Shown here piece by piece: positions 27,599 to 52,744 of a DNA stretch of 64,000 bases; position 1 is the stretch's first letter; each line of letters starts with the position of its first letter. The stretch comes from an uncultured Bacilli bacterium (GTDB lineage: Bacteria; Bacillota_I; Bacilli_A; RF39; UBA660). The notes under the pieces are model-generated. The model saw only the letters and a program-made list of their open reading frames with translations, was not told where the DNA came from and made no database searches. Position numbers and translations under genes: made by a program. The stretch lies in contig CAKPCB010000001.1 of assembly GCA_934141245.1 (NCBI GenBank), positions 21,259 to 85,258 of the forward strand, written 5' to 3'.

Positions 27599-27607
27599 GG
27601 AGGATTT

Positions 27608-28309: not shown

Positions 28310-28323
28310 GAAGAGGGTAGACT

Positions 28324-30570: not shown

Positions 30571-30584
30571 AGGAAAAATTTCAC

Positions 30585-31061
30585 ATGTTTTTTAATGGAA
30601 TTGTTCTTCGAATAATAATATTTATATCAATTATATTTTTTGCTTTTATTAGTTGCACTAGTTTAGATAAAACTATAGAAAAACAAATAGGTATTGATGT
30701 TAGCAAGTGTACTATATCTGAAGAAAAAGATACACATGGCGGATTTCTTGGTGATGGTGATTATTATGCAATATTTGATTGCTCTAAAAATAAGGACTAT
30801 ATCTTAGAACATTTAAATACATGGAATAAGTTGCCATTATCTAAAAATATTGAATTTGCTGTATCTAAATATACTGATATTGATATTTCCAAAATTAATA
30901 ATGGCTATTATTACTTTATTGATAGGTATGCCGTTGAATATAAAGATATAAAAGATATTCACAGTGATGAAAAACTTCTTGATAGATATGCTTTTAATTT
31001 TACAATAGCTATATATGATAGTGATACTAATATGCTTCATTATTATGAACTTGACACATAA
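30585..31061 (+). CDS. Small putative lipoprotein (hypothetical)
   Basis: 158 aa, N-terminal hydrophobic segment ending AFISC (lipobox-like). RBS AAAGGAAAA. Confidence 0.5.
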   Translation: MFFNGIVLRIIIFISIIFFAFISCTSLDKTIEKQIGIDVSKCTISEEKDTHGGFLGDGDYYAIFDCSKNKDYILEHLNTWNKLPLSKNIEFAVSKYTDIDISKINNGYYYFIDRYAVEYKDIKDIHSDEKLLDRYAFNFTIAIYDSDTNMLHYYELDT

Positions 31062-36078: not shown

Positions 36079-37986
36079 ATGTTTTTTAAAAAAATAGATA
36101 TGCGTATTAAAATTGTTTTGGTTGCACTTATTATTATGTTTGTAGTAATTATACTTAAAGTTGCATATATACAGCTTATTGACTATGGCAAATTAAAAAA
36201 ACTTGCTGATGATTTATGGAGTAGAAATCTCCCAATTGCGGCAAATAGGGGTGTAATAACAGATAGAAATGGTATTGTGTTGGCGGATAATATAACTACG
36301 ACATCATTAGTTTTAATACCAAATCAAATTAAAAATCCAGATGATGTATCTGAAAAACTATCAAAAATACTAGGCGTTACAAAAGAAGAAATGGATAAAC
36401 ATGTAAAAAAGAAAACATCTATAGAAAGAGTTCATCCAGAGGGGAGACAGTTATCATATGAGGTTGCAGATAAAATAGAGGCTTTAAAGCTTGATGGTGT
36501 TTATTTAGTTAAGGAGTCTAAAAGATATTACCCATATGATAAAACATTGTCTCATGTACTTGGTTATGTAGGAATTGATAATCAAGGATTATCTGGAATA
36601 GAACTTCAATATGATAAGTACTTAACAGGTGAAGCTGGGGCGATAAAATATTTTTCAGATGCAAAAGGTAATAAATTAGAGTTATCAGATGTATATGTAA
36701 AGCCACAAGATGGTATGAACATACAATTAACAATAGATTATAATATTCAAAAATCATTGGAAAGAGAGCTTGATAATGTTACTGATATGTTTGATCCCAA
36801 TATGGCTTTAGCTATAGTGATGGATCCTAATACAGGTGAAGTTTTAGCAATGAGTTCTAGACCTAATTATGATCCAAATAATTATAAGAATTATACTATG
36901 GAGGAATTAAGTAGAAATTTACCAATTTGGGCATCATATGAACCTGGTAGTACGTTTAAGATAATAACAACTGCTGCATCGGTTGAAGAAAAAATAATTG
37001 ACTTAGAAAAGGATACATTTTTTGATTCTGGTTCTGTAATAGTAAGTGGTGCTAGAATTGGTTGCTGGAAAGCTGGTGGACATGGACAACAAACATTTTT
37101 ACAGGTGTTTGAGAATTCATGTAACCCAGGATTTGTAAAAATGGGGTTGACTTTAGGAAAAAATAAATTGTTTTCTTACTTAGATTTATTTGGTTTTGGC
37201 AAAAAAACAGGAATAGATCTAAATGGAGAAGGAACTGGTATAATATTTAATCTAGATAAAGTAAAAGATTTGGAGCTTGCAACAACAGCATTTGGTCAAG
37301 GGGTGAGTGTTACACCAATTCAACAAGCAACTGCAGTTAGTGCAGTTGTAAATGGAGGTAAGCTTTACACACCGTATATTGTTAAAAGCTTTTCTGAACC
37401 TGAGACAAACACTATTTTGAAAGAAAATAAACCTAAACTTGTAAGAAATACAATTAGTGAGGGAACATCAAAAACTATGAGATATGCTTTGGAAAGTGTT
37501 GTTGCAAGAGGTGGTGGAAAATATGCATATATTGATGGCTATAGAGTTGGTGGAAAAACAGGTACTGCACAAAAAGTTCAAAATGGAAAATATCTTGTAA
37601 ATAATTATATAATGAGTTTTATGGCCGTTGTTCCTGCAAATAATCCAAAAGCAGTTCTATATATAGCAATTGATAATCCTAAAAATACAGCACTTTTATC
37701 AAGTTATACAACAGCACCTGTTGCAAGAAGAATATTACTTGATATAATTGATGCACTAAATATAGAAAAACAAGAGGGAGGAATTGAAAAGGTTCATCAA
37801 TGGACTGATCCAAATTATGTTTATGTTTCAAATGTCATTGGTTTAACTGCAAAGGAAGCATCTAGAAAACTATATCCATTAAATGTAGAATATTCTGGTA
37901 CTGGTGATAAAGTTGTAGAACAATCACCATCAGCAGGTACAAAAGTTGAATCAACTTCTACTGTAAGGTTAATGCTAGGAAAGTAA
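36079..37986 (+). CDS. Class B penicillin-binding protein (FtsI/SpoVD-like transpeptidase with C-terminal PASTA domain)
   Basis: N-terminal TM. SxxK (GSTFKIIT), SxN (ENSCNPGF) and KTG (GGKTGTA) motifs. PASTA-like C-terminus (VIGLTAKEASRKL...VESTSTVRLMLGK). It lies immediately upstream of mraY. Confidence 0.85.
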   Translation: MFFKKIDMRIKIVLVALIIMFVVIILKVAYIQLIDYGKLKKLADDLWSRNLPIAANRGVITDRNGIVLADNITTTSLVLIPNQIKNPDDVSEKLSKILGVTKEEMDKHVKKKTSIERVHPEGRQLSYEVADKIEALKLDGVYLVKESKRYYPYDKTLSHVLGYVGIDNQGLSGIELQYDKYLTGEAGAIKYFSDAKGNKLELSDVYVKPQDGMNIQLTIDYNIQKSLERELDNVTDMFDPNMALAIVMDPNTGEVLAMSSRPNYDPNNYKNYTMEELSRNLPIWASYEPGSTFKIITTAASVEEKIIDLEKDTFFDSGSVIVSGARIGCWKAGGHGQQTFLQVFENSCNPGFVKMGLTLGKNKLFSYLDLFGFGKKTGIDLNGEGTGIIFNLDKVKDLELATTAFGQGVSVTPIQQATAVSAVVNGGKLYTPYIVKSFSEPETNTILKENKPKLVRNTISEGTSKTMRYALESVVARGGGKYAYIDGYRVGGKTGTAQKVQNGKYLVNNYIMSFMAVVPANNPKAVLYIAIDNPKNTALLSSYTTAPVARRILLDIIDALNIEKQEGGIEKVHQWTDPNYVYVSNVIGLTAKEASRKLYPLNVEYSGTGDKVVEQSPSAGTKVESTSTVRLMLGK

Positions 37987-38071
37987 AGTAAGATGTAAAA
38001 AAGTAAACAATTATCAAATTTTTAGACAAAAATTCATATATTTATAGTATAATGTATATTACAGATTTGGA

Positions 38072-39067
38072 GTGATTTATTTGGGAATACTTTTATTAAC
38101 AAAATCTATATTTGCGATTATGATTGGTTTTTTATCATCTGTTGTATTAGGATTGATTATGATACCAATGTTGAAGAGAATGCATGTAGGTCAAAAAATT
38201 AGTATATTTGTTGGAGAAAATCACAAGAAAAAAGAGGGTACACCTACAATGGGTGGGTTGATATTTATACTTTCAACATTTTTTACAACTCTTTGTCTTT
38301 TAGTCACTAAAAAAATTGAACTTACTAACAATCTAATTATTATTTTACTTGTGTTTTTAGGATATGCTTTAATTGGATTTTTAGATGATTATATTAGTCT
38401 TAAAAGAGGAAATAATGAAGGATTAACGTCTTTTCAAAAATTATTTTTGCAACTTATAATTGCACTTGGCTTTTTCTATTTATATATGAAAAATGGTGGA
38501 CAAACTGCACTTATTGTCTCGACTTTAGGAATTCATATTGAGATGGGATGGTTTTATGGGGTATTCTTACTATTTGTTTTGGTAGGGGCATCAAATGCAG
38601 TTAACCTAACTGATGGCTTAGATGGTTTAGCTGGTGGATTGTCAGCAATTGCGTTTATTGCATTTAGCTTAATTTCTTTAATGGTTGGTTTTGAAGAAAT
38701 AGGAATATTTACATTTATATTAACCGGTTCAATAATGGGATTTTTAATATTTAATACATATCCTGCAAAGGTGTTTATGGGAGACACAGGTAGTTTAGCA
38801 CTAGGTGCTGTTATGGCCGCTGTTGCAATATTAACACACAGAGAGGTTACTTTACTTATTGTAGCTAGTGTGTTCGTAATAGAGACATTAAGTGTCATCT
38901 TGCAAGTAATTTGGTTAAGGCTATTTAAGAAAAAGTTGTTCTTAATGACACCATTACACCATCATTTTGAAAAACTTGGTTGGAGTGAACAAGATATTGT
39001 AAAATTATTCTGGGTTGTTGGATTGATTTTAACAATGGCAGGTATATTTTTTGGAGTTTGGTTATAA
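38072..39067 (+). CDS. mraY: Phospho-N-acetylmuramoyl-pentapeptide transferase
   Basis: GTG start. 10-TM protein with MraY signature blocks NAVNLTDGLDGLAGG, YPAKVFMGDTGSLALG and PLHHHFE. An extended -10 promoter (tagTATAATg) lies in the upstream intergenic region. Confidence 0.9.
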   Translation: MIYLGILLLTKSIFAIMIGFLSSVVLGLIMIPMLKRMHVGQKISIFVGENHKKKEGTPTMGGLIFILSTFFTTLCLLVTKKIELTNNLIIILLVFLGYALIGFLDDYISLKRGNNEGLTSFQKLFLQLIIALGFFYLYMKNGGQTALIVSTLGIHIEMGWFYGVFLLFVLVGASNAVNLTDGLDGLAGGLSAIAFIAFSLISLMVGFEEIGIFTFILTGSIMGFLIFNTYPAKVFMGDTGSLALGAVMAAVAILTHREVTLLIVASVFVIETLSVILQVIWLRLFKKKLFLMTPLHHHFEKLGWSEQDIVKLFWVVGLILTMAGIFFGVWL

Positions 39068-39090
39068 GGCTATTTTAAGCCTTTTTTTCT
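39064..39090 (+). terminator. Rho-independent terminator after mraY
   Basis: Stem ataaggct/agcctttt with loop ATTTTA, followed by a T-run. Confidence 0.6.
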
Positions 39091-39162
39091 TGCTTTTTCA
39101 TTTACTTAATTATTTAATTTTGCTATAATTACTATAGTTTATAATAAGGAAGTGATTAACAT

Positions 39163-41058
39163 ATGCTAAATAGCATTGGCTTAACTATATCTGGCTTTGT
39201 TTTTATACTTTTAATCGCAATTGTTTATTTATCAAAGAAAAAGTATAATAATTTACAAAACGTTATATACAGATTTTTGTTATTTACAACGATAGCAGTT
39301 TTAATATTAGAATTTATATGTGTTTTTACAATGTATAATAGTGTTGAGTTTGGAAAATTAGTTATACTAAATGAGTTTTTATGCAGAATCTATATTCTAA
39401 CTTATATTGCATTATTTGTAGGAATAATAGGTTATGTAAGAAGTCTTACTATAGATAAAACTTATAATAAACCTATAGAATTTTTTCAAGAAAAATTTAT
39501 GGGTACACTAATTGTAATAGCTTCAGTTTTGTACTTTATATCTTGCTTTTTTGAATTTAAATTTACATCAGGAACTGGAATAAATAAAGTTTATGTAACT
39601 GGAGGTCTACCTGTATATGTTTTATATATTGCTTTTGCTTTTGCGGGCGTATATATGACAGTTGCTCTTTTAAAGGATATTAATAAGGAAAATGTTTCAA
39701 AAAGAGTTCCATTAATACTTTTTTTGATTATTTACTTTTTTATAGGAGTTATTCAACTATATACAATTGATATAAATGATCTTACTTATTTATTTGCTTT
39801 TAGTATAATTGCAATTTATTTTACACTTGAAAACCAAGATGTAATATTAGTAAATGAACTAGAAATAGCTAAGAGCGAAGCAGAACGTGCAGATAAAGCC
39901 AAGACAGCATTTTTATCAAAAATGTCGCATGAGATAAGAACTCCTATGAATGCAATAATGGGATTTAGTGAAACACTTCTAAATAATAATAAACTAACTA
40001 CTAAAGAGTTAAAAGAAGATGTCGGTAATATTTATAAAGCAGGTAATGATTTATTAGAAATAATTAATAATATATTAAATTTATCAAGAATTGAGTCCGG
40101 AAAAGAAAAATTGGAAAATCTTGAGTATTATATTGGTGACATAGTATTTGAACTAAATAGTTTTATATATGCAAGAATAGATAAAACCAAAGTTAAATTT
40201 ATAATTGATATTGATCAAGATATTCCATCTAAGCTACTTGGAGATAGATTAAAGATATATACAGTTTTATCAAATATTTTGGAAAATTCAGTACAATTTA
40301 CTTCAAAAGGTGAAATAAAACTTTCTATAAGATGTAAAAATGAAGGAAATATTTCGCACTTGTTATTTGAAGTGTCAGATACTGGTCAAGGAATAAAGAA
40401 AGAAGATTTTGAAAAAGTATTCAATTCATTTACTATGTCAGAAGTAACTGGAGACAATTATAGTGGAATTGGGCTAGGATTAGTTATATCAAAAAAACTT
40501 GTAGAAATGATGAATGGTACTATTTCTTTTGATAGTGAATATGGTGTTGGAACTAAGTTTTATGTAAAGATAGATCAACAAATAATTGATAAAACAGAAA
40601 TTGGTAACATTTTAAAAGAAGAAGAAATTTCTTCGAAGGTAAAAGAAAAAGAATTTTACTTTGATTGTTCTAAATATAGTGTGTTAATAGTGGATGATAA
40701 TAAATTGAATTTGAAAGTAGTTAATAGACTATTAGAACCATACAATATAAAATGTGAAAATGTAGAGAGTGGCAAAGAATGCATTGAGAAGGTAAAGTCT
40801 GGAAAGAAATATGACTTAATCTTTCTAGATCACATGATGCCAGATTTAGACGGTATTGAAACAATTAGAATATTGAAAAAAATGACAGAGAAAACTCTTC
40901 CACCTATAGTTGCCATGACAGCTAATGTTGTTACTGAATTTAGAGAAAAGTATATAAAAGAAGGGTTTGATGATTATATATCTAAACCTATTGATATAAA
41001 AAGACTTAACAAATTATTAAAAAAATACTTTTATAAAGAGAAGAAAAAGAGGAAGTAG
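39163..41058 (+). CDS. Hybrid sensor histidine kinase (6-TM sensor, HisKA, HATPase_c, C-terminal receiver)
   Basis: H-box [19 protein letters not shown]-box [13 protein letters not shown]1 DTGQGI, G2 [12 protein letters not shown]. Receiver with [11 protein letters not shown] and [13 protein letters not shown]. Confidence 0.8.
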
Positions 41059-41066
41059 GTGATTTT

Positions 41067-42920
41067 ATGTTAGGTGAGATATTAGTATCTGTTGGTGCAT
41101 TAATTTTTGCTATGCTTTTAACAGTTATATACTTTGTAAAGGCAAAGAAAACACAAGTTAATAACATATTTTATAAAATTGCATTGATTCTCATAAGTGT
41201 TACTATAGTTAGTGAATTATCTACAGTTTGTTCAATGTTCTTTTTGAAAGATATGCCTAATATAGGTAATACTTTAGCAAGAATTAATGGGTTATTAACT
41301 ATAACTTGGGTTGTTTCTATCGCTTGCTATATAGTGACACTTGGTGAGGCATATGTTAAAAAAAGTGTATTTGAATATATTAAAGAAAATAGGAATATAA
41401 AAAACATAATAATACTATATGTTATAATTGTTATTGTATACTTTTTTATAAAGTTTGATAACGTTGTTACTGATCGATATGCATACATTTCTGGACCAGC
41501 ACTGTATTATATATATATAGTTGGTGTATTTACTACAATAGTAGCAATATTAACAGTTGTTAGAAATAAAGCAAATCTTACAATTGGAAAGAGAATTCCA
41601 ATATTTGCGGGTATAGTTGAAACAATATTGTCTATGATATTTCAACTTATGTTTCCAAATGTTTTAGTTATATCGGGAAGCTTTGTGTTTAAATTATATT
41701 TGGTATATTTTATGTTTGAAAATCCAGATTTATATTTAATTGATGAACTTAATAAAGCAAAGAAAAAAGCTGAGGATTCTAACAAGGCTAAATCAGATTT
41801 CTTATCTAATATGTCACATGAAATAAGAACTCCTATGAATGCAATAATGGGATTTAGTGAGACAATACTAAATGATAAAAAAGTAAATGTAGAAAATGCA
41901 AAAAAAGATATAGAACACATTTATATAGCATCTTCTAATCTTTTAGAGATAATGAATAACATACTTGATATTTCTAGAATTGAAACTGGTGAAGAAAAAT
42001 TAGATAATAAAGATTATAGTATTGGAAATATAGTATTAGAATTAAAAAGTATAATAGACGCTAGACTTAATAATCCTAAAGTTAAATTTATTACTAATGT
42101 AGATGAAAATATTCCATCAAAATTATTTGGTGATAAAACTAAAGTTTTTCAAATATTACTTAACATATTGAGTAATTCAGTTAAATATACAGAAGTTGGT
42201 AAGATTGAACTTTATGTTACTGCAGATGTAAAAGGAAATAATGCTAATTTGCATTTTAAAGTTTCTGATACTGGCTTTGGTATAAAAGAAGAAGACTATG
42301 ATAAAATATTTGAAAAGTTTTCTAGATTAGATAATGCAACTAGGAATGAAATAGAGGGTACCGGTTTGGGACTTGTTATAACAAAAAAATTAGTTAATTT
42401 ACTAGGTGGAAAAATTTGGTTTGAAAGTCAATATGGTGCTGGTACAACATTTTATGTTGATATTACACAGCAAATTGTTGATAGTTCTAAATTAGGTAAC
42501 ATATTAACCGAAAAAGGTATAACAAGCGAAAGAAATTATCTTGATTGTTCAAAATATAAAGTTTTAATTGTAGATGATAATAAATTGAATTTGAAAGTTG
42601 CAGAAAAAATTCTTACTCCATATAAATTTTCAATCACTACATTAAACGGAGGAAGGGAATGTGTAGATAATATCAAAGAGGGTAATAAATATGACATGAT
42701 TTTTCTAGATCATATGATGCCAGAATTAGATGGAATTGAAGTTTTACATATATTAGAAAAATTAGATAGTTATGACATTCCACCAGTTGTTGCATTAACA
42801 GCAAACGCAATAACAGGAATGAAAGAAATGTATTTAAATGAAGGGTTTGATGAGTATTTAGCAAAACCTATAAATATAAGTGAACTTGATAAAATCATAA
42901 ATAAGTATTTTAAGAAATAA
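41067..42920 (+). CDS. Hybrid sensor histidine kinase, tandem paralogue of the preceding gene
   Basis: Same architecture as the preceding kinase, with near-identical H-box [18 protein letters not shown] and receiver [11 protein letters not shown]...[12 protein letters not shown]. The N-terminal 6-TM domain is divergent but colinear. Confidence 0.8.
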
Positions 42921-43298
42921 ATGGAGGTTATAAAGATGGAAAATAAAATGGAATTTTTAAAACAAAATGGAATGGATATGGATTCAGCATTATCATATTT
43001 AGGTGACTATGAAACTATTGATGAAATAATTAGAGATTTTTATGATGGTTTAGATTCACAATTACAGCAATTAGAAGATTTGAAAAATCAAAAAGATATG
43101 GCAAATTATGCAATATATGTACATGCATTAAAAAGTAATTACAGATCTTTAGGATTAAAAGAATATGCGGAAGATGCTTATCAACATGAATTACAGAGTA
43201 AGGCAAATAATATAGAATTTGTAGAAAATAATTTCAACACTTTAATTAATGATAAAGAAAGAATTAAAAGAATAATAGAAAAATATAAAACTATGTAA
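42921..43298 (+). CDS. Hpt (histidine phosphotransfer) domain protein
   Basis: 125 aa, starting 1 nt after the kinase stop. Hpt consensus HALKSNYRSLG (HxxKGxxxxxG with the phospho-accepting His). Confidence 0.6.
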   Translation: MEVIKMENKMEFLKQNGMDMDSALSYLGDYETIDEIIRDFYDGLDSQLQQLEDLKNQKDMANYAIYVHALKSNYRSLGLKEYAEDAYQHELQSKANNIEFVENNFNTLINDKERIKRIIEKYKTM

Positions 43299-43311
43299 AA
43301 GGGGACTGTGT

Positions 43312-44883
43312 ATGATTGATGAAAACATTAAACTAATACATTCTGAAATTTTGAATTGCTTTAACAGTATACATGTAATTAACATTGATTTGGATAAAGT
43401 GTATACATATAATATCATTGATGGAAAAATAAATAATACTAGCTCTGTCTCATTTTTTGATTTTATGCAAGATATATCATCAAAAATAGAACCAAATGAT
43501 GTAAATGGATATTTTGATAGTATTTCTGCAAATAAAATAGAGAAAAATAATGGAGTTGTTGTATATAACTATAAAATTAAGGAAAATGATAAATATAAAA
43601 AGTGCATAAATATTTCTAAACTTATAACAAATCAATATGGAAAAATAGTTATATCAGCATCAATGTATGACAATTCTATTGATCATGAAAACACTGAATT
43701 AAATGATTTAAAAGCTAAATTTTCAAATGTAACAAATAGAGTTTCAGATATTATATTAAAGGTATTTAATGCATTGGATTCAAATTCACTTAATATGAAT
43801 ACTAGTAATTATATAACTACATTACTTCAAGAATTAGTAAAAGAATTTCCTGATTTTGATAAAGAACTTGAAAAAAATATGATATCTCAAGTTAGCAAAA
43901 CACAAAATGCATTATTAATAGTCGATGATGATCCAATGACTAGAAATTTAATTAAGAAAACTTTTAATGACAAGTATGAAATAATAATGGCAACTAATGG
44001 AAAAGAAGCAATGGAAACTTTAGATAGAATTGGATTTGATAATATAGTTGGTATATTTCTTGATTTAATGATGCCAGTTGTTGATGGTTTTGCAGTGCTA
44101 GAGTATTTAAGAAATAAGAACGTATTATCAAGAATACCCGTTATAATAATAAGCGGTACTGAAGAAAAAGAAACAAGACAAAAAGTTTACAAGTATAATA
44201 TTGCAGATTTACTAGAAAAACCATTTAATCTTGATATAATCAAATATAGAACTAAAAATTTAATAAATTTATACAAAACAAGCAATGCATTAAACAATAT
44301 GGTTTTTTCACAACACAATGATTTAATGTCTATTATAAAAGAAATTGAGAAGTCATATAAATATGATAATAAATCTGATTTTGATAACATTAAAAAATAT
44401 TTTGATATTATCATAAAACAAGTTTTAAGTGATTGGCCAGAGTATAGACTTTCTGACTATGAAATAAATAATATAAAGAAATCAATTGAATTTTATAACA
44501 TAGGTCTTTACTTATTACCTAGATATTTAGGAAAAAATGGAAATATATCAAAAGAAGAAGTTGAAATAATAAAGAAACATCCTATTTTAGGTAGTAAAAT
44601 AGTAAGTAAGATATTAATTACTACAAAGGATGAAGATTTAATTGATTGTGCCACTAAATTAACTAGTATGTGTTATGAAAGATATGATGGAAGTGGATAT
44701 CCTGAGGGTATTAGTGGAGATAACATTCCATTTTGGATACAATGTGTATCTTTATCTATAGATATTAATATAGCTTTAAAGCAAAATATAGACATGAATG
44801 TATTTATTCAAAAATCATCAGCCAAATATAATCCAAAGATAATTGATAGTTTAAAAAAAGTAATAGAGCAACTAAAAAGATAA
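43312..44883 (+). CDS. Response regulator: unknown N-terminal domain + receiver + HD-GYP-like (apparently degenerate) output domain
   Basis: Receiver ALLIVDDDPMTRN and FLDLMMPVVDG. C-terminal ERYDGSGYPEG is the GYP signature. The HD position reads YNIG and HHE reads CYE, suggesting loss of the catalytic metal ligands. Confidence 0.7.
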   Translation: MIDENIKLIHSEILNCFNSIHVINIDLDKVYTYNIIDGKINNTSSVSFFDFMQDISSKIEPNDVNGYFDSISANKIEKNNGVVVYNYKIKENDKYKKCINISKLITNQYGKIVISASMYDNSIDHENTELNDLKAKFSNVTNRVSDIILKVFNALDSNSLNMNTSNYITTLLQELVKEFPDFDKELEKNMISQVSKTQNALLIVDDDPMTRNLIKKTFNDKYEIIMATNGKEAMETLDRIGFDNIVGIFLDLMMPVVDGFAVLEYLRNKNVLSRIPVIIISGTEEKETRQKVYKYNIADLLEKPFNLDIIKYRTKNLINLYKTSNALNNMVFSQHNDLMSIIKEIEKSYKYDNKSDFDNIKKYFDIIIKQVLSDWPEYRLSDYEINNIKKSIEFYNIGLYLLPRYLGKNGNISKEEVEIIKKHPILGSKIVSKILITTKDEDLIDCATKLTSMCYERYDGSGYPEGISGDNIPFWIQCVSLSIDINIALKQNIDMNVFIQKSSAKYNPKIIDSLKKVIEQLKR

Positions 44884-44915
44884 TAAATTTTAAAATTTAT
44901 TGTCTTTTTTTTAGG
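44883..44915 (+). terminator. Weak AT-only hairpin + T-run after the response regulator gene
   Basis: Palindrome ataaattttaaaatttat followed by gtcTTTTTTTT. Confidence 0.4.
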
Positions 44916-44925
44916 ATTAATCAAA

Positions 44926-47040
44926 TTGACTTACTATATTTATAAATGTAAGGAGGTGAGATTAATAAGGCGTTATGAATGCGTCTATCAGGAATGTGAA
45001 AATGATTGTGCAGTTGCAGCACTCTTAACTATTATTAAAACTTATGGTGGTAGAGTTTCGAAAGAATATTTGAGAGTTTTGACAAATACAAGTAAAACTG
45101 GTACTAATGCTTATTATATATTAGAAGCAGCAAAGTACTTAGGTTTTGATACAAGGGCATTAACTGGAAATGTTAAAAATTTAAAGAAAACTATGCTTCC
45201 TTGTATAGCACACGTTATTTTAGAATCAAAATATAAGCATTTCGTTGTTATACATAGCATTGGTAATAATAGTATTGTAATCGCGGATCCATCAAAAGGA
45301 ATATTAAAAATGAGTATAGAGGAGTTTCAAAAGATAAGTACAAGTAATTATTTAATATTAATACCTAAAAAACAGCTCCCATACATTAAAGATGATAAAA
45401 CCTTAATAATTAATATAAAAGAATATATTTACAAAAATAAAAAAATAATTATTAGTATATTATTCTTTTCGATTGTTTATACTTTTATTAATATTTTAAC
45501 ATCATATGGATTTCAATTTGTAATAGAAGATTCTATTAACATACAATCAAAGAACAATTTATATTTTATAATTATATTGTTACTAGTATTATCCTTTATG
45601 AAACATTTAACAGATTTTGTAAGATTTAACTTGTTTAATTATATAAATCACAAATTAGATTTTTTACTTACTATAGATGTATTTAAACACTTATTATCAC
45701 TTCCTTATCAATATTATAAAACCAGAACAAGAGGAGATATTATATTTAGAATTAATGATTTAAGTAATATTAGACAGTCTTTATCCAATATTTTTATGTG
45801 TATTTTTGTTGATGGGTTATTAGCGGTATTCATGTTTATTTCATTATTAAAAATAAATAAATACCTAAGTGCTTTGTCACTAATTGTAATAGTTTTATAC
45901 TATTTTGTTATTAAAACATTTTCATATCCAAATAGTATTAATTTATTAGAAAGTAAAAAAAGTGCATCTAGTATTAATAATGACTTTATTGAAACACTTA
46001 CTTCGATTGATACAATTAAAAACTTAAAACTAGAAGAAGAGTTTAAAGATAAAATAAATGACTCTTATCTAAACTATTTAAGAAAGAGTTTTAACTTTAA
46101 TAAGACAATTAATATAGAAATCTTATTTAAAAATTTAATTGATAGTTTTGGAAAGTATTTTATATTATTTTTAGGTAGCATATTCGTGTTAAAAGAAGAA
46201 ATAACATTAACACAACTAATAACATATAATTCATTAATTATATATTTTTTAGAACCTATAAAAAATATTATTAATTTAGATGTTGATATTAAAAATATGA
46301 AAATATCGATAAAGAGAATAATAGAATTGTATAACGTTGGTAAAGAATTTAATAAAATAGATGAAAAATATACAAATAAAGAACTAATTGGAAATATAAA
46401 AATTAATGATTTAAATTATTCTTATAATGGTCGGAATAAAGTATTAAATAAAGTTAATTTAGATATTAAATCAGGTGAAAAAATATTTATTTGTGGAAAT
46501 AGTGGAAGTGGAAAGAGTACACTAGTGAAAATATTAATGAAGTATTTAAATGTTGAAAATGAAAAAGTATTATTAGATGATAAAGACATAAATAATTATA
46601 ATATTTTAGAAATAAGGCGTGACATTTGTTATGTATCACAAAATGAATCATTATTTACAGATTCAATATATAATAATATTATTTTAAATAGAAACATTGA
46701 TTACGATTCATTTTTATCTATTTGTAAAAAACTTGGAATTGACAAAATAGCAAATAAAAATATAAACGGATATAATATGACTTTGGAAGAAAATGGATTT
46801 AATTTAAGTGGTGGAGAAAGACAAAGAATTATAATGGCTAGAGCATTACTAAAAAATAGTAGTATATATATTTTTGATGAAAGTTTAAGTCAAATTGATA
46901 TAGAATCAGAAAGAAATATACTAGGCAAAATATTTAAACTTTATAGTAATAAAACAATTATAATGATATCCCATAGATTTGATAATCAAGACTTGTTTGA
47001 CAAAAGCTATAAACTAGAAGGAGGGATATTATATAACTGA
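44926..47040 (+). CDS. Bacteriocin-processing ABC exporter with N-terminal C39 peptidase domain (LagD/ComA-like)
   Basis: C39 motif YQECENDCAVAALLTIIKTYGG (Cys active site) and downstream His region HFVVIH. 6-TM domain. Walker A GNSGSGKST, signature LSGGERQRIIMARAL, Walker B IYIFDES. The true start may be the GTG at 44957 after RBS AAGGAGG. Confidence 0.85.
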   Translation: MTYYIYKCKEVRLIRRYECVYQECENDCAVAALLTIIKTYGGRVSKEYLRVLTNTSKTGTNAYYILEAAKYLGFDTRALTGNVKNLKKTMLPCIAHVILESKYKHFVVIHSIGNNSIVIADPSKGILKMSIEEFQKISTSNYLILIPKKQLPYIKDDKTLIINIKEYIYKNKKIIISILFFSIVYTFINILTSYGFQFVIEDSINIQSKNNLYFIIILLLVLSFMKHLTDFVRFNLFNYINHKLDFLLTIDVFKHLLSLPYQYYKTRTRGDIIFRINDLSNIRQSLSNIFMCIFVDGLLAVFMFISLLKINKYLSALSLIVIVLYYFVIKTFSYPNSINLLESKKSASSINNDFIETLTSIDTIKNLKLEEEFKDKINDSYLNYLRKSFNFNKTINIEILFKNLIDSFGKYFILFLGSIFVLKEEITLTQLITYNSLIIYFLEPIKNIINLDVDIKNMKISIKRIIELYNVGKEFNKIDEKYTNKELIGNIKINDLNYSYNGRNKVLNKVNLDIKSGEKIFICGNSGSGKSTLVKILMKYLNVENEKVLLDDKDINNYNILEIRRDICYVSQNESLFTDSIYNNIILNRNIDYDSFLSICKKLGIDKIANKNINGYNMTLEENGFNLSGGERQRIIMARALLKNSSIYIFDESLSQIDIESERNILGKIFKLYSNKTIIMISHRFDNQDLFDKSYKLEGGILYN

Positions 47041-47041
47041 A

Positions 47042-47458
47042 ATTGTTAATTATAATTCTATTTATAAGCATGATTTTTCTTTAGCAAGAATCTGGTTTTG
47101 GTTTATAATTATTGTATTTATTATAAGCTTTGTAATTTTTAAAAATATAAAATATTATGTATACTTTAGTGATTATGGTATTGTAACAGAAGAAGGTAAT
47201 ATAAAGATATCAATTAATAAGGCTGATTTAAATAAAATTGTTAATAATACTCAAATAAAAATAAATAATAAATATTTTGCTTACACAATTAAGAGTATTA
47301 ATGAAAGTTTAGATTCAATAAATAATAAGGTAGAAATTATATTAGAAGTTAAGTTGCCAACTAATATTAAAGTTAAAAATAATATATTAGAGTTTAAAAT
47401 ATTACTCAGTGATAAGACCATTTTAGAATATATTGTACATAAGATAGGAGAATTATGA
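47042..47458 (+). CDS. Membrane-anchored protein encoded by an ORF without canonical ATG/GTG start (possible bacteriocin accessory or immunity protein)
   Basis: Hand translation in the frame ending at the TGA at 47456-47458 is stop-free from ~46967. It encodes ...ARIWFWFIIIVFIISFVIFKNIKYYVYFSDYGIVTEEGNIKISINKADLNK...ILEYIVHKIGEL, a TM helix plus a ~100 aa domain. A GGAGGG RBS lies at 47022-47027. Its stop overlaps the ATG of the first GG-leader peptide (ATGA). It is absent from the ORF track; the frame contains in-frame TTG codons at 46979 and 46997 but no in-frame ATG/GTG. Confidence 0.4.
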   Translation: MVNYNSIYKHDFSLARIWFWFIIIVFIISFVIFKNIKYYVYFSDYGIVTEEGNIKISINKADLNKIVNNTQIKINNKYFAYTIKSINESLDSINNKVEIILEVKLPTNIKVKNNILEFKILLSDKTILEYIVHKIGEL

Positions 47459-47592
47459 GTGAATTAAAAAAAGAACAATTAATGAAAATAGAGGGTGGAA
47501 TGTCAACTTGGGCTGCTATAGGAATAGGTGCCGGAATTGTATTCTTGATAGGGGTACTAGATGGATTTTTTAGACCATTGAAATGTAATTAA
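47455..47592 (+). CDS. Double-glycine-leader bacteriocin precursor peptide A (class II, GxxxG-type)
   Basis: 45 aa: MSELKKEQLMKIEGG | MSTWAAIGIGAGIVFLIGVLDGFFRPLKCN. The leader ends in GG with the LxxIxGG pattern recognised by C39 peptidases. The mature peptide is hydrophobic with a GIGAG (GxxxG) motif. It is shorter than any ORF reported in the track. Confidence 0.6.
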   Translation: MSELKKEQLMKIEGGMSTWAAIGIGAGIVFLIGVLDGFFRPLKCN

Positions 47593-47601
47593 GGAGGATG
47601 C

Positions 47602-47769
47602 ATGAGAGAAATAAATATAAAAGATTTAAGTCTTATCGAGGGAGGTATGAATGTATCGGGGACTTTAATTAATGCATTAACATCAGGTATAAAAATTATA
47701 CTTGAGGTTGGAAGATGCTTGGGTTCCGTAATAAGAAGGGGAAGCAATGGTGATGTTTGTAAAATATGA
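47602..47769 (+). CDS. Double-glycine-leader bacteriocin precursor peptide B
   Basis: 55 aa: MREINIKDLSLIEGG | MNVSGTLINALTSGIKIILEVGRCLGSVIRRGSNGDVCKI. RBS AAGGAGGA lies 4 nt upstream. The GG leader matches peptide A in pattern. The mature part has two Cys. Confidence 0.6.
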   Translation: MREINIKDLSLIEGGMNVSGTLINALTSGIKIILEVGRCLGSVIRRGSNGDVCKI

Positions 47770-47924
47770 TGGATAGAATAATTAGAATCAATAAAAGAAA
47801 TTTAAAAGATACTAAAACACTGTTGTATATGATGCTTCTAACACTTTTATCAATTACTATTTTACTAATTGCATTTAATATAGGAACATATTTAGGTTCA
47901 TATTTACAATGTGTTTTTAATTAA
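47766..47924 (+). CDS. Small membrane peptide (52 aa), candidate immunity protein
   Basis: MMDRIIRINKRNLKDTKTLLYMMLLTLLSITILLIAFNIGTYLGSYLQCVFN. One TM helix. Its ATG overlaps the stop of peptide B (ATGA). A strong terminator follows. Confidence 0.4.
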   Translation: MMDRIIRINKRNLKDTKTLLYMMLLTLLSITILLIAFNIGTYLGSYLQCVFN

Positions 47925-47929
47925 TAAAA

Positions 47930-47972
47930 AGCATGATATATAATCACAGTAATTATATCATGCTCTTTTATA
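47930..47972 (+). terminator. Rho-independent terminator closing the bacteriocin locus
   Basis: ~11-bp stem agcatgatata/tatatcatgct with a 13-nt loop, followed by CTTTT. A TTGAAA-16-TATAAT promoter for ftsA follows. Confidence 0.6.
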
Positions 47973-48063
47973 TATATTTATAACTATAAAAACACTTTGA
48001 AATAAAACAAAGATATAGTATAATGTTCTATAGAAGGATAATAAATAGAGGTGAAGTCCTTAT

Positions 48064-49314
48064 ATGAGAAATATTTATACTGGAATAGATTTTGCGAGTG
48101 ATGGAATTAAAATTGTTGTTAGTGAAATAATAAATAATAAATTTTATATATTAGCTTCAACTTCTACTGATTTTAAATCATCAGGTATTAGAAAAGGAAT
48201 AATTGTAGATAGACAAAAGACTGTAGAGTCATTAAATGAAGCTATAAAAAATATAGAATCTACGATTGGAATGAGGATTAAAGAAGCTGTAGTTACTATT
48301 GCATCTAATTCTCCACAATTAAGTGTTGTATCTGGTACAGTTAATGTTTTAAACGATGAAATAACAGGTGATGATATTTCTAATTCGTTATCAGAAGCAA
48401 CAGTTAATAAAGTTCCTGAAGGTATGGAATTACTAAATGTGATTCCAATAACTTTTGAAATTGATAATACTTCAAGTGTTACAAATCCTAAAGGAAGAAG
48501 AGGACAGTATTTAACGGCAAAAGCTGTTATGATTACTGTTCCAAGAGAAAATTTGTATAGTGTATTAGAAGTGTGTAACATATGTGACGTAAAAGTAAGT
48601 GATGCAACGTTTAGAACTATTGGTGATTATTATGAGGCAAGGGATAATAATACAGACAAAGAGGTTGGAGTAATTATAGACATAGGTGAGGACATAACAG
48701 AGATTTCAATATTTAATAAGGGTATAATAATTAAGAGTGATATTATAAATTTAGGAAATAGGAATATTGATAAAGATATTTCATATATATATGGATTAGA
48801 TTTATCTACATCAAAAGAAATAAAAGAAAATTTTGCAGTTTGTAGTAGAAAATATGCAGACATAAATGATATAATAAATATTGATATTAATTCTGAAGGC
48901 AAAGAACAGTTAAAAATAAATCAGTATGAAGTATCAGAAGTTGTAGAGGCTAGAGTATCAGAACTGCTAAAACTTGCAAAAAAAAGCATAAATAACTTAA
49001 CAAACCGAAAAATTAGTTATATAATTGTTACAGGTAGTGTTAGTGAATTGACTGGATTTAGCTATATAGTCGAAAATGTTTTAGGAATTAATTCATCTAC
49101 ACTTAATATTACAAATTTAGGTATTAGAAATAATAAATATTCTAGTGCTTTTGGAATTATAAAATATTATAGTGATAAACTAAAATTTAAGAATACAAAC
49201 TCAAGTATGTTTGATGAATCAAAAATAGATAGTTTAACAAATAAGAAAAACGCAGTTACTGCAAGTGAACCTAAACTTGTTAGTAAGATTTTTGATTATT
49301 TTACTGGTGATTAA
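48064..49314 (+). CDS. ftsA: Cell division protein FtsA (actin-like ATPase)
   Basis: 416 aa. N-terminal [15 protein letters not shown] (phosphate-1-like), [12 protein letters not shown] and [11 protein letters not shown] actin-fold blocks. Immediately upstream of ftsZ. Confidence 0.8.
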
Positions 49315-49325
49315 GGAGGAATATT

Positions 49326-50417
49326 ATGTTTGGCACATTAGAAATGGATCAGTTAGCAAAAATAAAAGTTATAGGTATAGGTGGTGGCGGTGGTAATGCC
49401 GTTAATAGAATGATAGAGTCTGGGGTTAAAGGTGTAGAGTTTATTGTTGCCAATACTGACTTGCAAGTTTTAAACAATTCTAAAGCTGAGAAGAAAATAC
49501 AAATTGGAGCCACTTTAACTGATGGATTAGGAGCTGGAGCTAAACCTGAAATAGGTAGAGAAGCTGCTGTAGAATCAAAAAAAGAGATAGAAGAAGCATT
49601 AACTGGTGCTGATATGGTATTTATCACTTGTGGTATGGGTGGAGGTACAGGTTCTGGTGCCGCTCCTGTTGTTGCTGAAATTGCACAAGCTTTAGGTGCA
49701 TTAACTGTTGCTATTGTTACTAAACCATTTACATTTGAAGGAAAAAAGAGAATGGAAAATGCTTTAGTAGGACTTGAAGAATTAAAAAAACATGTTGATA
49801 CACTAATCGTTATTCCAAATGATAGATTAAGAGAAATAATTGATAAATCCACTCCAATGCTAGAGGCATTTAAGGAAGTAGATAATGTATTGAGACGTGG
49901 TGTTCAATCAATATCTGATTTAATTGCTGTTGTTGGTTTAGTTAACTTGGATTTTGCTGACGTAAAAGCAGTAATGGAAAAATCTGGTAATGCTATAATA
50001 GGTATAGGTATAGGCATGGGAGAAGATAGAGCAATAGAAGCTGCAAAGCAAGCTGTTTCAAGTCCACTTCTTGAAACTAGTATTTCTGGTGCAACAGATG
50101 CAATAATCAATATTACCGGTGGATTAAATTTAACTTTGTTTGAAGCAGAACAAGCTGCAGAGGTTGTAAGAGCTGCTGCAAATACTGATATTAACACTAT
50201 ATTTGGATCTGTAATTAATGAAAACTTAACAGATGAAGTAATCGTTACAGTAATTGCAACTGGATTTGATAAAGCTAAGAAAGAACCATTATATAATAAT
50301 GCTCAACAAATCCCTACAAGAAGAACAAGAGAACAAGAAATAATTGGTGAAGATGATGATGATTCAAGTGATGATGGCGAATATGAATATCCACCATTTA
50401 TGAGAAGAAATTTCTAA
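49326..50417 (+). CDS. ftsZ: Cell division GTPase FtsZ
   Basis: Tubulin signature [12 protein letters not shown]-terminal [17 protein letters not shown], and T7 loop region NLDFADV. Acidic C-terminal tail. Confidence 0.9.
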
Positions 50418-50482
50418 AAGTCCTAGTGACTTTTTTTTCTTTATAAGGTATAATTATTTTATCAGTATAGAGTAGCATAGAG

Positions 50483-52744
50483 GTGATTTCATTGGCAAAA
50501 AAGAAAAAAAGAAAAGAAGATAAAAAAAAGAAATTTGCATATGCAACTGAACTTTATGGAGTAGGTTTTATATTATTAGCAATTTTAGGTATTGGAATAG
50601 GATCACCACTTGGAATGGTTGGAAAGTTAGTAAAAGCATTTTCTGTATTCCTTTTTGGAACTTGGAATATAGTTTTTATGATAGCATTATTTGTTTTAGG
50701 CTCTTATATGATTATAAAAAGAGAAAAGCCATCATTACTAACTTCACATTTGGTAGGAATTTACATAATTTTAATTGGTATATTAGTTTATTCACATTTA
50801 AATTATGTTTTGTTAAATGGTGGTGATGTAGTTTACACCTTAAAAGCAACTACAAATGATTTAATTAATAATTTTAATTCGATTATGTCATCAGGAAAGT
50901 TTAATCCTAGTGGTGGTGGAATACTAGGATGCTTATTTTCAATGTTGTTTAATAAACTTTTTGATAATTCAGGTACTAAAATTGTTTCGATTGTATTAAT
51001 TGTTACAGGAGTATGTTTATTTACTGGTGTTTCTATTTTTGACTTAATAAGAAAAAGTTATCAGAAGGGTAAAAGCATGTTACCTAAGCACAATAAGGAT
51101 AGTTCGTATAAAGAAACTGCTTCAGTTAAGCAAGTCATAATAAACAATGGTGATGATGATGAAGAACCACATGATAAAAAGGTTGTAATTTCTAGTATTG
51201 ATGAATTAACGCACAATATTGAAAAATCTAATAATGAAGTTGTAAACAAAACAGATGTTAGTATAAATACTACAAATAAGAATTATAAACTACCACCAAT
51301 TTCATTATTGAATCCACCTGTAAAATCAAAAGGAAACAAAAATCAAGCTGTTATTGAAAAAAATATAATGATACTTGAAAAGGTCTTAAAAGATTTTGGT
51401 ATTATTGGAAAAGTAGTTGAAGTTAATAGTGGCCCAAGCGTAACACAATATGAGCTAGAAGTTCAAAGTGGTACTAAATTAAGTAAAATTCTTAGTATAA
51501 ATAGGGAAATATCTTTAGCACTTGCTAAAAGGGACGTACGTATACAGGCACCTATTCCCGGAAAAAGTACTGTAGGTATTGAAATGGCTAATGAGGAAAC
51601 AAAACCTGTTTCATTAAGAGAAATATTGGATGCAGTACCACAAAACAAAGCAAATTCAAAATTATTAGTGGCTTTAGGTAAAAACATTATGGGAAAAAGT
51701 GTTTTTGCAGAAATAGATAAGACACCGCACCTTTTAGTTGCTGGTGCAACTGGTTCAGGTAAATCGGTTTGTATTAACTGTATTATCGCATCTATACTTA
51801 TGAGGACAAAACCTGATGAAGTAAAACTAATGATGGTGGATCCAAAAAAAGTAGAACTTAGTATGTACAATGGTATTCCTCATTTAATGATGCCAGTTGT
51901 AACCGATCCAAAAAAAGCAAGCATCGCACTTCAAAAAGTCGTTGCCGAAATGGAATCACGTTATGATTTATTTAGTGAAAAAAACGTAAAAAACATATCT
52001 ACATATAATGAATGGGTGGAAAAAGAAAATGCTCATTTACCAGATGACGCAAAAATTAAAAAGATGCATTATATTGTCGTAATTGTAGATGAACTTGCAG
52101 ATTTAATGCTTGTTGCATCAAAAGAAGTAGAAGATTCTATTATGAGAATTACTCAAATGGCTCGTGCCGCAGGAATTCATTTAATTATTGCAACTCAAAG
52201 ACCTTCAACAGATGTAATTACAGGTGTTGTAAAAGCAAATATTCCATCTCGTATATCATTTGCTGTTTCATCTAATATTGATTCTCGTACTATACTAGAC
52301 CAAAGTGGTGCAGAAAAATTGCTTGGTAGAGGAGATATGCTTTTCTTACCAATGGGTGAAAATGCACCAGAACGTGTACAGGGAGCATATGTTTCTGATG
52401 AAGAATTACAAAAAATAGTAGATTACACTGTGTCACAACAAAAAGCAATGTATGATGAAAGATTTATGAATTTAACGACAGCTGCTGAATCTCAAGGAAA
52501 TGCAGGAGGAGAAGTTAAAACAGTCGAAGAGGAATATGATGATCCATTATATAACGATATAGTTGAATTCGTAATTACACAAGGAAAGGCAAGTGCATCA
52601 CTTCTTCAAAGAAGGTTTAAACTTGGATATAATAGGGCGGCTAGAATAGTTGACTTATTAGAAGAAAGAGGTATAATTGGACCACAAAATGGCTCTAAGC
52701 CAAGGGAAGTACTAGTTAAATTAGAAGAAAGCGAAGAAGAATAA
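50483..52744 (+). CDS. ftsK: DNA translocase FtsK/SpoIIIE
   Basis: GTG start. 4-5 N-terminal TM helices. Motor domain with Walker A VAGATGSGKSV and Walker B IVVIVDELADLM. C-terminal gamma (winged-helix) domain LYNDIVEFVITQGKASASLLQRRFKLGYNRAARIVDLLEERGIIG. Confidence 0.9.
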   Translation: MISLAKKKKRKEDKKKKFAYATELYGVGFILLAILGIGIGSPLGMVGKLVKAFSVFLFGTWNIVFMIALFVLGSYMIIKREKPSLLTSHLVGIYIILIGILVYSHLNYVLLNGGDVVYTLKATTNDLINNFNSIMSSGKFNPSGGGILGCLFSMLFNKLFDNSGTKIVSIVLIVTGVCLFTGVSIFDLIRKSYQKGKSMLPKHNKDSSYKETASVKQVIINNGDDDEEPHDKKVVISSIDELTHNIEKSNNEVVNKTDVSINTTNKNYKLPPISLLNPPVKSKGNKNQAVIEKNIMILEKVLKDFGIIGKVVEVNSGPSVTQYELEVQSGTKLSKILSINREISLALAKRDVRIQAPIPGKSTVGIEMANEETKPVSLREILDAVPQNKANSKLLVALGKNIMGKSVFAEIDKTPHLLVAGATGSGKSVCINCIIASILMRTKPDEVKLMMVDPKKVELSMYNGIPHLMMPVVTDPKKASIALQKVVAEMESRYDLFSEKNVKNISTYNEWVEKENAHLPDDAKIKKMHYIVVIVDELADLMLVASKEVEDSIMRITQMARAAGIHLIIATQRPSTDVITGVVKANIPSRISFAVSSNIDSRTILDQSGAEKLLGRGDMLFLPMGENAPERVQGAYVSDEELQKIVDYTVSQQKAMYDERFMNLTTAAESQGNAGGEVKTVEEEYDDPLYNDIVEFVITQGKASASLLQRRFKLGYNRAARIVDLLEERGIIGPQNGSKPREVLVKLEESEEE

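Follow-up and report, generated by a model that had tools for sequence, protein, structure and literature searches.

What does a phosphorelay act on when it ends in an HD-GYP domain without a catalytic centre and lies directly beside the genes of a bacteriocin exporter? This question is raised by four genes at positions 39163-44883 of a 64,000-nucleotide (nt) stretch of contig CAKPCB010000001.1 from an uncultured Bacilli bacterium; the whole of this stretch is referred to below as the window. The genes encode two hybrid histidine kinases (HK1 and HK2), a histidine phosphotransfer protein (Hpt) and a response regulator. The reading that we prefer, with a rough probability of 0.55, is that they form a self-contained multi-step relay, a conserved module of uncultured low-GC gut Bacilli that is separate from the bacteriocin unit and adjacent to it only in the sub-lineage of the window.

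To our knowledge, hybrid-kinase/Hpt relays and HD-GYP domains have been studied almost wholly in Proteobacteria. The present relay is complete, recurs in dozens of uncultured gut Bacilli of low GC content, and ends in an HD-GYP domain that was inactivated long ago yet is clearly under selection. It would thus be a clean case, found in nature, of a signalling pseudoenzyme whose input is defined (two kinases, one Hpt and one regulator), and the function of a GYP-only domain could be addressed by reconstituting the pathway in vitro. The unnamed family of roughly 520-550-aa proteins to which the regulator belongs also gains a testable annotation, together with a caution against labelling its members as phosphodiesterases of cyclic diguanosine monophosphate (c-di-GMP). 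As long as neither partner nor phenotype is known, the practical importance is limited.

Organisation of the relay operon

The region consists of four co-directional open reading frames (ORFs), separated by gaps of 8, 0-15 and 13 nt, each with a Shine-Dalgarno (SD) sequence. The operon and its boundaries are as follows.

39163..41058, forward strand: HK1, hybrid histidine kinase of 631 aa, with a sensor of about seven transmembrane (TM) segments (residues 1-225), HisKA (H256), HATPase_c and a receiver (REC) domain (D556)
41067..42920, forward strand: HK2, paralogous hybrid kinase of 617 aa (H251, D548)
42936..43298, forward strand: Hpt phosphotransfer protein of 120 aa (Pfam Hpt; SD and start codon), with an alternative start at 42921 (125 aa)
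43312..44883, forward strand: response regulator of 523 aa (Pfam Response_reg at residues 202-310, HD_5 at residues 393-474)
39066..39092, forward strand: intrinsic terminator of mraY (at 39066-39083 by the terminator scan; folding energy -8.9 kcal/mol, then a T-run)
39101..39129, forward strand: candidate relay promoter with an extended -10, TTTACT-17-TGnTATAAT (10 of 12 matches, TG present; consensus match only)
44876..44912, forward strand: terminator-like 14-bp A/U-rich hairpin over the regulator stop codon, followed by a U-run (folding energy -10 kcal/mol, z -2.9)

A first-pass annotation had described a four-gene phosphorelay in the order HK-REC, HK-REC, Hpt and regulator, and both the order and the relay are borne out by the ORFs and Pfam. 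Each kinase carries HisKA, HATPase_c and Response_reg with E values of 1e-16 to 1e-26, far beyond chance, and all phospho-acceptor residues are intact.

The terminator after mraY is the upstream boundary of the operon. Promoter-like matches are barely enriched in the window, which has 25% GC; 104 were found for 87 expected, and the promoter scan was on that ground discarded as uninformative. The terminator scan demanded three G-C pairs and so overlooked the A/U-rich hairpin 3' of the regulator gene, which was caught by explicit folding.

The hybrid kinases and the Hpt protein

HK1 and HK2 are 42% identical overall; the figure is about 53% for the core and about 25% for the sensor. They are paralogues with diverged membrane sensors, as the first-pass annotation held, although its description of the catalytic cores as near-identical overstates their likeness. 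The H-box His (H256 of HK1) is kept in 85 of the 86 kinases of related loci, and the REC residues D511, D512, D556, T586 and K608 are kept in all 86.

Kyte-Doolittle hydropathy gives six clear hydrophobic segments and a seventh at about residues 205-222 of HK1 and 199-217 of HK2. The K/R-rich loops at 24-30, 95-111 and 170-183 fit, by the positive-inside rule, a seven-TM topology with the N-terminus outside, so that the kinase core would lie in the cytoplasm. The predicted topology thus favours seven TM segments over the six that had been assigned.

Both the HK1 type and the HK2 type are present in about 33 related loci, from which it follows that the duplication is old. Across genomes, the core of HK2 is the better conserved part (63-76% identity) and its sensor evolves faster, with 24-30% identity in distant genomes versus 31-41% for the sensor of HK1. 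Such a pattern could mean that the ligand of HK2 is specific to the species. HK1 shows the reverse asymmetry (39163-39840, compared with 41067-41730 of HK2 and with the orthologues of both). The NCBIfam equivalogs TorS, BarA, LuxQ, ArcB and NosR all scored far under their cut-offs, and none of these names was adopted.

The Hpt protein passes the Pfam cut-off by a small margin (25.8 bits, cut-off 24.6). Its phospho-accepting His is H68 in the numbering of the 125-aa form, within the motif VHALKSN, and H68, K71, S72 and N73 do not vary among 55 orthologues. The ATG at 42936 follows GGAGGT at a distance of 7 nt and yields the 120-aa protein of the public gene calls, and translation probably starts there and not at 42921. 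The gap between HK2 and Hpt is then 15 nt. The statement that the stop of kinase 2 abuts the start of the Hpt gene would hold only for a start at 42921, and fails with the likelier ATG.

Domain architecture of the regulator

Four parts can be distinguished in the regulator.

43312..43671, forward strand: divergent PAS domain, residues 1-120 (AlphaFold2 domain model, Foldseek, domain profile)
43672..43908, forward strand: helical linker, residues 121-199, with helices at 128-156, 162-178 and 182-194 (low model confidence, with a predicted local distance difference test score (pLDDT) of 42-55)
43909..44241, forward strand: REC domain, residues ~200-310 (Pfam E 7.9e-21), with D206/D207, the phospho-acceptor D251, S281 and K303
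44371..44877, forward strand: degenerate HD-GYP fold, residues ~354-522, with Y395-N396, C454-Y455-E456 and an intact G462-Y463-P464

An AlphaFold2 model of the whole protein (pLDDT 79) shows an alpha/beta domain (1-120), a poorly defined helical linker (128-194), the REC domain (200-306), a long helix and an all-alpha domain (354-522). The REC residues D206, D207, D251, S281 and K303 are invariant in an alignment of 18 sequences with 37-68% identity. Neither the Pfam domain calls nor the model contain a DNA-binding domain.

The N-terminal ~190 aa had been left as an uncharacterised domain, which no longer applies. Residues 1-125 modelled alone reach a pLDDT of 93 and a predicted TM-score (pTM) of 0.83, and form the five-stranded antiparallel sheet with flanking helices of the PAS fold. 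The top Protein Data Bank (PDB) matches in Foldseek are the PAS domain of a Brucella LOV-HK (6ph4, query TM-score (TMq) 0.61), HIF-2alpha/ARNT PAS-B and a dCache domain; the PAS matches score TMq 0.5-0.6 with E values of about 1e-3. Pfam calls no PAS domain in the window regulator itself. A profile of the N-terminal domain, run against 1.84 billion representative proteins, gave 75 hits only, most of them N-termini or fragments of 520-555-aa proteins of the same family. The scanned exceptions have multiple repeats. Where a check was possible, in two GGDEF proteins, the profile match overlaps Pfam PAS_3 (P0168, 295-408 and 335-404; P0198, 24-150 and 80-124), and a PAS-rich hybrid kinase was also matched. 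As modelled, then, the N-terminus is a divergent PAS domain followed by a helical linker; the model is confident and the structural scores are moderate.

Among the scanned hits that are not regulators (P0168, P0176, P0188, P0198), the matches of the PAS profile fall most often on tandem repeats of PAS-GGDEF diguanylate cyclases. The Arg/Ala-rich composition of those proteins suggests that they come from organisms of higher GC content.

An HD-GYP fold without a catalytic centre

The C-terminal domain has the HD-GYP fold. A family profile matches PmGH of Persephonella (4MCW) at E 8e-20 and PA4781 (4R8Z) at 2.6e-16, and Foldseek returns both structures as well (4r8z with a target TM-score (TMt) of 0.65-0.70). 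The Pfam match to HD_5 is partial, in that residues 393-474 correspond to profile positions 47-125 of 170.

The eight metal ligands of PmGH (Bellini et al.; Galperin and Chou) were mapped onto the window regulator and 120 relatives.

E185 of PmGH: D352 in the window regulator; D is invariant in the family
H189: D356; mostly N in the family
H221: Y395; Y in 117 of 120
D222: N396; D in 105, N in 15
H250: H423; Y in 104
H276: C454; Y in 96
H277: Y455; H in 104
D305: I483; A or I in the family

At most two of the eight positions of the window regulator retain a plausible ligand (H423, and perhaps the acidic D352), and the family consensus is equally degenerate. The Lys of the HDxGK catalytic site is replaced by Leu or Tyr. 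Membership in the catalytic HD-GYP phosphodiesterases is rejected on the metal ligands. The alignment to HD-GYP enzymes thus confirms the degeneracy noted earlier as YNIG and CYE (H221/D222 have become Y395/N396, and H276/H277 have become C454/Y455). A non-catalytic output, also proposed at that stage, is upheld as far as sequence can tell, the metal centre being lost in the window regulator and in all 120 relatives.

Judging from the alignment, this loss is ancient and family-wide. It was not followed by loss of the domain, which is full length in every relative and confidently modelled (pLDDT about 90), with D352, Y378, G398, Y400, P403, E456, G460, G462 and P473 invariant and Y395 nearly so. 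The GYP motif itself is intact as G462-Y463-P464, with G in 120, Y in 112 and P in 118 of 120 family members; together with E456 it is essentially invariant. The constancy of D352, E456 and GYP across the alignment indicates purifying selection on a non-catalytic function, and the conserved replacement residues in an always full-length domain likewise argue for a selected role and not for decay. Three of the His ligands are swapped for Tyr throughout the family (H221Y, H250Y and H276Y), which leaves a Tyr-rich remnant pocket with the invariant acidic D352 at the position of E185.

Distribution of the relay in related genomes

A scan of one genome per species for the regulator gave 80 loci, and tblastn searches with the proteins of the window identified the relay genes in them. 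The database entries of these loci carry the labels uncultured Bacilli, Mollicutes or Tenericutes, or Clostridium sp. CAG:710, CAG:594 and CAG:914, three genera that GTDB, we take it, places in the order RF39. Kinase, Hpt and regulator occur together in 53 of the 80 loci. Six loci have the HK-HK-Hpt-RR order of the window (L001-L004, L046 and L048), and the rest have Hpt-RR-HK-HK or Hpt-RR-HK. About 20 further loci hold a stand-alone paralogue of the regulator and no kinases. These form a PAS-REC-pseudo-HD-GYP subfamily of about 30% identity, with neither kinase nor Hpt adjacent (L058-L080; for example, L058 10001-13156). No name for the regulator family was found in any source searched, and a literature search for RF39 with c-di-GMP returned nothing.

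The link to the bacteriocin genes is not part of what is conserved. Only three of the 53 relay loci (L001, L004 and L005) have a full-length exporter with a C39 peptidase domain, accompanied by double-glycine (GG) leader peptides, at a distance of no more than 10 kb from the relay; the other 50 have neither a C39 exporter nor a GG-leader peptide at that distance. The close relatives L002 and L003 share the operon order of the window and continue with unrelated genes, namely a surface protein with Listeria-Bacteroides repeats or a rhomboid-like gene, and housekeeping genes. The repeat protein is a membrane-anchored protein of about 375 aa with five such repeats (Flg_new), found directly after the regulator in L001 (5847-6974) and L002 (12380-13510) and absent from the window.

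Proposed mechanism

What we infer for the nature of the signal, the direction of phosphotransfer and the output by protein interaction is as follows. The two hybrid kinases have differing, membrane-embedded sensors of about seven TM segments with no sizeable extracellular domain, and each would sense a different membrane-associated or small-molecule cue. Each kinase would autophosphorylate on its His and pass the phosphoryl group to its own REC domain; both would feed one common Hpt at His68, and the Hpt would phosphorylate Asp251 of the PAS-REC-(HD-GYP-like) regulator. Phosphorylation of D251 would alter the conformation or the oligomeric state of the GYP domain and thereby its interaction with a partner. 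The C-terminal domain, with its metal centre lost, should not be able to hydrolyse c-di-GMP, and would most likely serve as a phosphorylation-switched protein-protein module, that is, a signalling pseudoenzyme. The PAS domain would give dimerisation or a second, cytoplasmic input. The bacteriocin cluster would be a separate transcription unit, and not the dedicated target of the relay.

Several points weigh against this reading. No universal neighbour that might be a partner of the regulator emerged from ORF clustering over the 80 loci, apart from the relay genes themselves. As far as the sequence goes, the Tyr-rich remnant pocket or the PAS domain might still bind a ligand. The relay lies within 10 kb of a C39/GG cluster in two separate lineages (the clade of the window, L001 and L004, and that of L005), which is above naive random expectation and could mean either a functional link or an ancestral linkage. 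Lastly, read-through into the exporter is plausible because the hairpin behind the regulator gene is A/U-rich.

Gene neighbourhood and the cell envelope

The relay of the window is flanked by division and cell-wall (dcw) genes, with a penicillin-binding protein (PBP) carrying a PASTA domain and MraY upstream, and FtsA, FtsZ and FtsK downstream. It is therefore tempting to speculate that the relay senses the state of the cell envelope and targets the cell-wall or division machinery through protein-protein contacts, a suggestion whose basis is synteny and which we consider unlikely. The position between mraY and ftsA-ftsZ agrees with it, and so do several arrangements elsewhere. The relay of L046 and L048 lies between two PBP genes and next to mraY, with PBP-mraY following it; about 16 further genomes carry mraZ-rsmH-ftsL-PBP a few kb upstream of their relay; and dcw genes are near the relay in about 20 loci. 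In about 17 other genomes (L011-L050, among them L046 and L048; for example, L045 181-20302) the relay sits inside or beside an mraZ-rsmH-ftsL-PBP ... PBP-mraY region, in a position unlike that in the window. The stand-alone regulator paralogues are directly followed by whiA in 16 loci. In 19-23 loci the relay is directly followed by genes for a 148-aa lipoprotein with no Pfam family and for a 760-1069-aa ABC protein in which a nucleotide-binding domain (NBD) is fused to FtsX (MacB-like; for example, L045 15370-18120), and in L003 such an NBD-FtsX transporter precedes the relay (2081-5290). The window has no homologue of either protein. The membrane-embedded sensors would also suit an envelope signal.

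However, in small genomes of common descent such an arrangement could simply have persisted by phylogenetic inertia. No dcw genes lie within 10 kb of the relay in L003, L002, L004 and the single-kinase lineages, and several non-division genes part the two in L045. The argument is also one from gene neighbourhood, and not from any direct interaction.

A wider proposal is a lineage-wide pathway of reduced-genome gut Bacilli, in which each of the two kinases would respond to a cue of its own, diffusible or in the membrane and possibly a cell-cell signal, and in which the information would reach neither DNA nor a nucleotide pool; instead, a phosphorylation-gated HD-GYP pseudoenzyme would directly modulate the envelope, division or export machinery, possibly including, in the sub-lineage of the window, the adjacent exporter. 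Put in this broad form, the idea strikes us as rather unlikely.

The adjacent bacteriocin cluster

The genes that follow the relay make up a class IIb export locus, with a C39 exporter, an accessory protein and double-glycine peptides.

44926..47040, forward strand: C39-peptidase ABC bacteriocin exporter, a neighbour and not part of the relay (Pfam Peptidase_C39, ABC_membrane and ABC_tran; NCBIfam TIGR01193 at 455 bits, under the cut-off of 524)
47033..47458, forward strand: exporter accessory protein, ~141 aa with one TM segment (tblastn to a 149-aa ORF of L001: 37% identity, E 4e-15)
47455-47592, forward strand: GG-leader peptide 1, class IIb, lactobin A/cerein 7B family (NCBIfam TIGR03949, 28.1 bits, cut-off 21.5)
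47602-47769, forward strand: GG-leader peptide 2
47766-47924, forward strand: putative immunity protein, 52 aa with one TM segment
47924..47971, forward strand: terminator hairpin ending the bacteriocin unit (folding energy -15.1 kcal/mol, z -5.4)
47997-48024, forward strand: promoter-like site before ftsA (promoter scan, 11 of 12)

The peptide and immunity genes (47455..47924) have orthologues in L001, L004 and L005. The first-pass annotation placed the end of the relay operon about 40 nt before the exporter and suggested that the relay controls it, in place of the usual HPK10/LytTR system. The distance is right (42 nt) if the exporter starts at the TTG at 44926; it becomes about 80 nt with the ATA at 44965, which lies close behind the SD AAGGAGGTGA and is, from the sequence context, probably the true start.

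The suggestion of control can be put more fully. The relay would respond to a quorum or peptide signal and regulate the class IIb cluster next to it, replacing HPK10/LytTR and acting on transcription by read-through or autoregulation, or else post-translationally. The genes of the two units are co-directional and close. Domain scans of the window ORFs found neither an HPK10 kinase nor a LytTR regulator near the cluster, and no third GG-leader peptide that could serve for induction lies there. The multi-TM sensors with short loops resemble receptors of peptide or lipid autoinducers, and the sensor of HK2 diverges fast between species on a conserved core, as pheromone receptors do. Moreover, the second lineage with a cluster within 10 kb of the relay, that of L005, is a distant one.

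Against control by the relay stands first the rarity of the linkage, given above. In L005, the bacteriocin unit is 5 kb away, past two opposite-strand genes and a MurC-like gene, so that the two units are parted. Terminators lie between regulator and exporter: the hairpin in the window, a clear G-C terminator at the same place in L004, and a terminator just before the exporter in L001. When the four exporter upstream regions are aligned, they share a terminator, a -10-like TATATT/TAATATT and then GAGGAGGTGA, and this gives the exporter a conserved -10 and SD of its own; no conserved repeats or regulator-binding site was found upstream of the exporter in the four genomes, the terminator, the -10-like element and the SD being all that is common. 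The lack of a DNA-binding domain in the regulator points the same way. Rare linkage, a terminator, a -10 and SD of its own and a regulator without a DNA-binding domain make the bacteriocin cluster look like an independent unit. This does not strictly refute a link between relay and exporter. What it does is to remove the positive evidence for one; the claimed control is not supported, and we hold it to be quite unlikely.

The accessory ORF has no in-frame ATG, GTG or TTG and was for that reason overlooked by start-codon-based ORF calling. Both it and the exporter appear to start at ATA, 6-8 nt after the strong SDs AAGGAGGTGA (44950-44970) and AAGGAGGGA (47018-47045); for the accessory gene, this start is probable on sequence grounds. 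The aligned exporter start is ATG in L005, and L001 and L004 have an in-frame ATA after the SD, with a conserved K-Y-x-C-V peptide encoded upstream of the annotated ATG. The accessory protein has a weak NCBIfam match to the Mycoplasma MAG1140 family, and the exporter also scores on the Mycoplasma 'Mbov_0121' peptidase-ABC model.

Nucleotide binding or decay as alternatives

The degenerate domain might be a non-hydrolysing receptor for c-di-GMP or a related nucleotide (for example, pGpG, cyclic GMP-AMP (cGAMP) or c-di-AMP), with phosphorylation of the REC domain gating either its affinity or the effect downstream. Binding of c-di-GMP was one of two outputs first put forward for the regulator, the other being protein interaction. 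Reviews say that inactive HD-GYP domains may keep c-di-GMP binding; the Tyr of GYP, which in PmGH forms hydrogen bonds to the ribose-phosphate ring, is kept here, as are E456 and the K of KPG, and the nearest relatives of the PAS domain outside the regulators sit in GGDEF cyclases. However, the contact motifs for c-di-GMP are not in place. RxY[K/R], which according to the literature is largely responsible for c-di-GMP (guanine) specificity, is deleted in the window regulator and in 114 of 120 relatives. KPG has become K408-N409-G410 in the window regulator and is K-D-S in most of the family. The phosphate-binding metal ions are left without ligands. No GGDEF, EAL or PilZ domain was found among the scanned window ORFs, a weak point as it covers 64 kb only. 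As metals and the guanine-recognition motif are both lacking, c-di-GMP binding in the canonical mode is unlikely from the motifs, and a nucleotide receptor of any of these kinds appears improbable. By analogy with known inactive domains, protein interaction is the better guess of the two outputs.

A regulator that serves as a phosphate sink, its C-terminal domain having no function and being in decay, is scarcely credible as an alternative, since the loss of all catalytic motifs, which would fit it, is accompanied by a full-length, confidently modelled domain with invariant residues in every relative, unlike neutral decay; the label of a decaying pseudogene domain was rejected on this strong residue conservation.

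Comparison with known systems

In the RpfC-RpfG system of Xanthomonas, which serves diffusible signal factor (DSF) signalling, a multi-TM hybrid kinase passes phosphate by His-Asp-His-Asp transfer to a REC-HD-GYP protein, and RpfG also signals through GYP-dependent protein interactions. The relay described here follows the same logic from kinase to HD-GYP. It differs in that RpfC is one kinase with a fused Hpt, whereas here the Hpt has a gene of its own on which two kinases converge, and in that RpfG keeps the HD and HHE ligands, which the window regulator does not.

The convergence of parallel membrane hybrid kinases on one free-standing Hpt and one regulator recalls LuxN/LuxQ/CqsS-LuxU-LuxO of Vibrio. 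LuxO, however, is a sigma-54 activator with a DNA-binding output, whereas the relay here ends in a pseudo-HD-GYP, and the sensors are unrelated. The kinases are sub-threshold for LuxQ (274 bits, cut-off 1200) and the Hpt protein has a weak NCBIfam match to LuxU; with all NCBIfam scores far under the cut-offs, membership in the Vibrio LuxQ/LuxU family is rejected.

The HPK10/LytTR systems of class II bacteriocins resemble the relay in adjoining a C39 exporter and double-glycine peptides, and in the multi-TM sensors of their kinases. Here, by contrast, both kinases belong to the HisKA hybrids, LytTR is missing from the regulator, no induction-peptide gene is present (both of the two GG-leader peptides being bacteriocin-like) and the linkage is not conserved. 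None of the features that define the three-component systems being found, membership in these bacteriocin regulators is rejected.

The closest parallels to the regulator are inactive proteins of the RpfG type, in which a REC domain is followed by an HD-GYP domain with HD and HHE replaced; this is also the arrangement of the window regulator, which keeps GYP. For PA2572 of P. aeruginosa, a REC protein with "YN-GYP", no activity could be detected, and it appears to signal through interactions (PMC3411652). HnoD of Shewanella and ECA3548 of Pectobacterium are further inactive REC-HD-GYP regulators that appear to act by protein interaction (bioRxiv 10.1101/2021.11.05.467447); hydrolysis of c-di-GMP is absent from all three. 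All three share with the window regulator the absence of the HD and HHE motifs, and PA2572 has the same YN replacement. In contrast to them, the window regulator has its REC domain preceded by a PAS domain at the N-terminus and a helical linker, lacks RxYK, shows systematic His-to-Tyr changes, and is fed by a dedicated hybrid-kinase/Hpt relay in a Gram-positive gut lineage. Beyond the common domains, the three proteins have no detectable close sequence relationship to it. What is new is, therefore, the PAS-REC-pseudo-HD-GYP order, the split Hpt, the dual seven-TM kinases and the lineage of gut Bacilli, inactive REC-HD-GYP regulators as such being known already.

Other features of the window

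The division and cell-wall cluster of the window is in pieces (36079-52744), with PBP-MraY first, then the relay and bacteriocin genes, and then FtsA-FtsZ-FtsK. No murD, ftsW, murG or divIB was found between mraY and ftsA in this interval.

About 8 kb upstream of the relay lies a segment of a conjugative element (22331-31061). It encodes a VirB4/TraG-like ATPase (22876-24666), a cell-wall hydrolase of 966 aa with CHAP and SpoIID domains (24698-27598) and a type IV secretion system (T4SS) coupling protein (28324-30570). The G+C content climbs to 30-36% at 20-28 kb, overlapping this segment, and is 24-27% elsewhere. The window also holds a sigma-70-family factor (757-1548) and a homologue of the sporulation protein YunB (12156-12914), which may be residual sporulation genes; the relatives are deposited as Bacilli, Mollicutes and Tenericutes.

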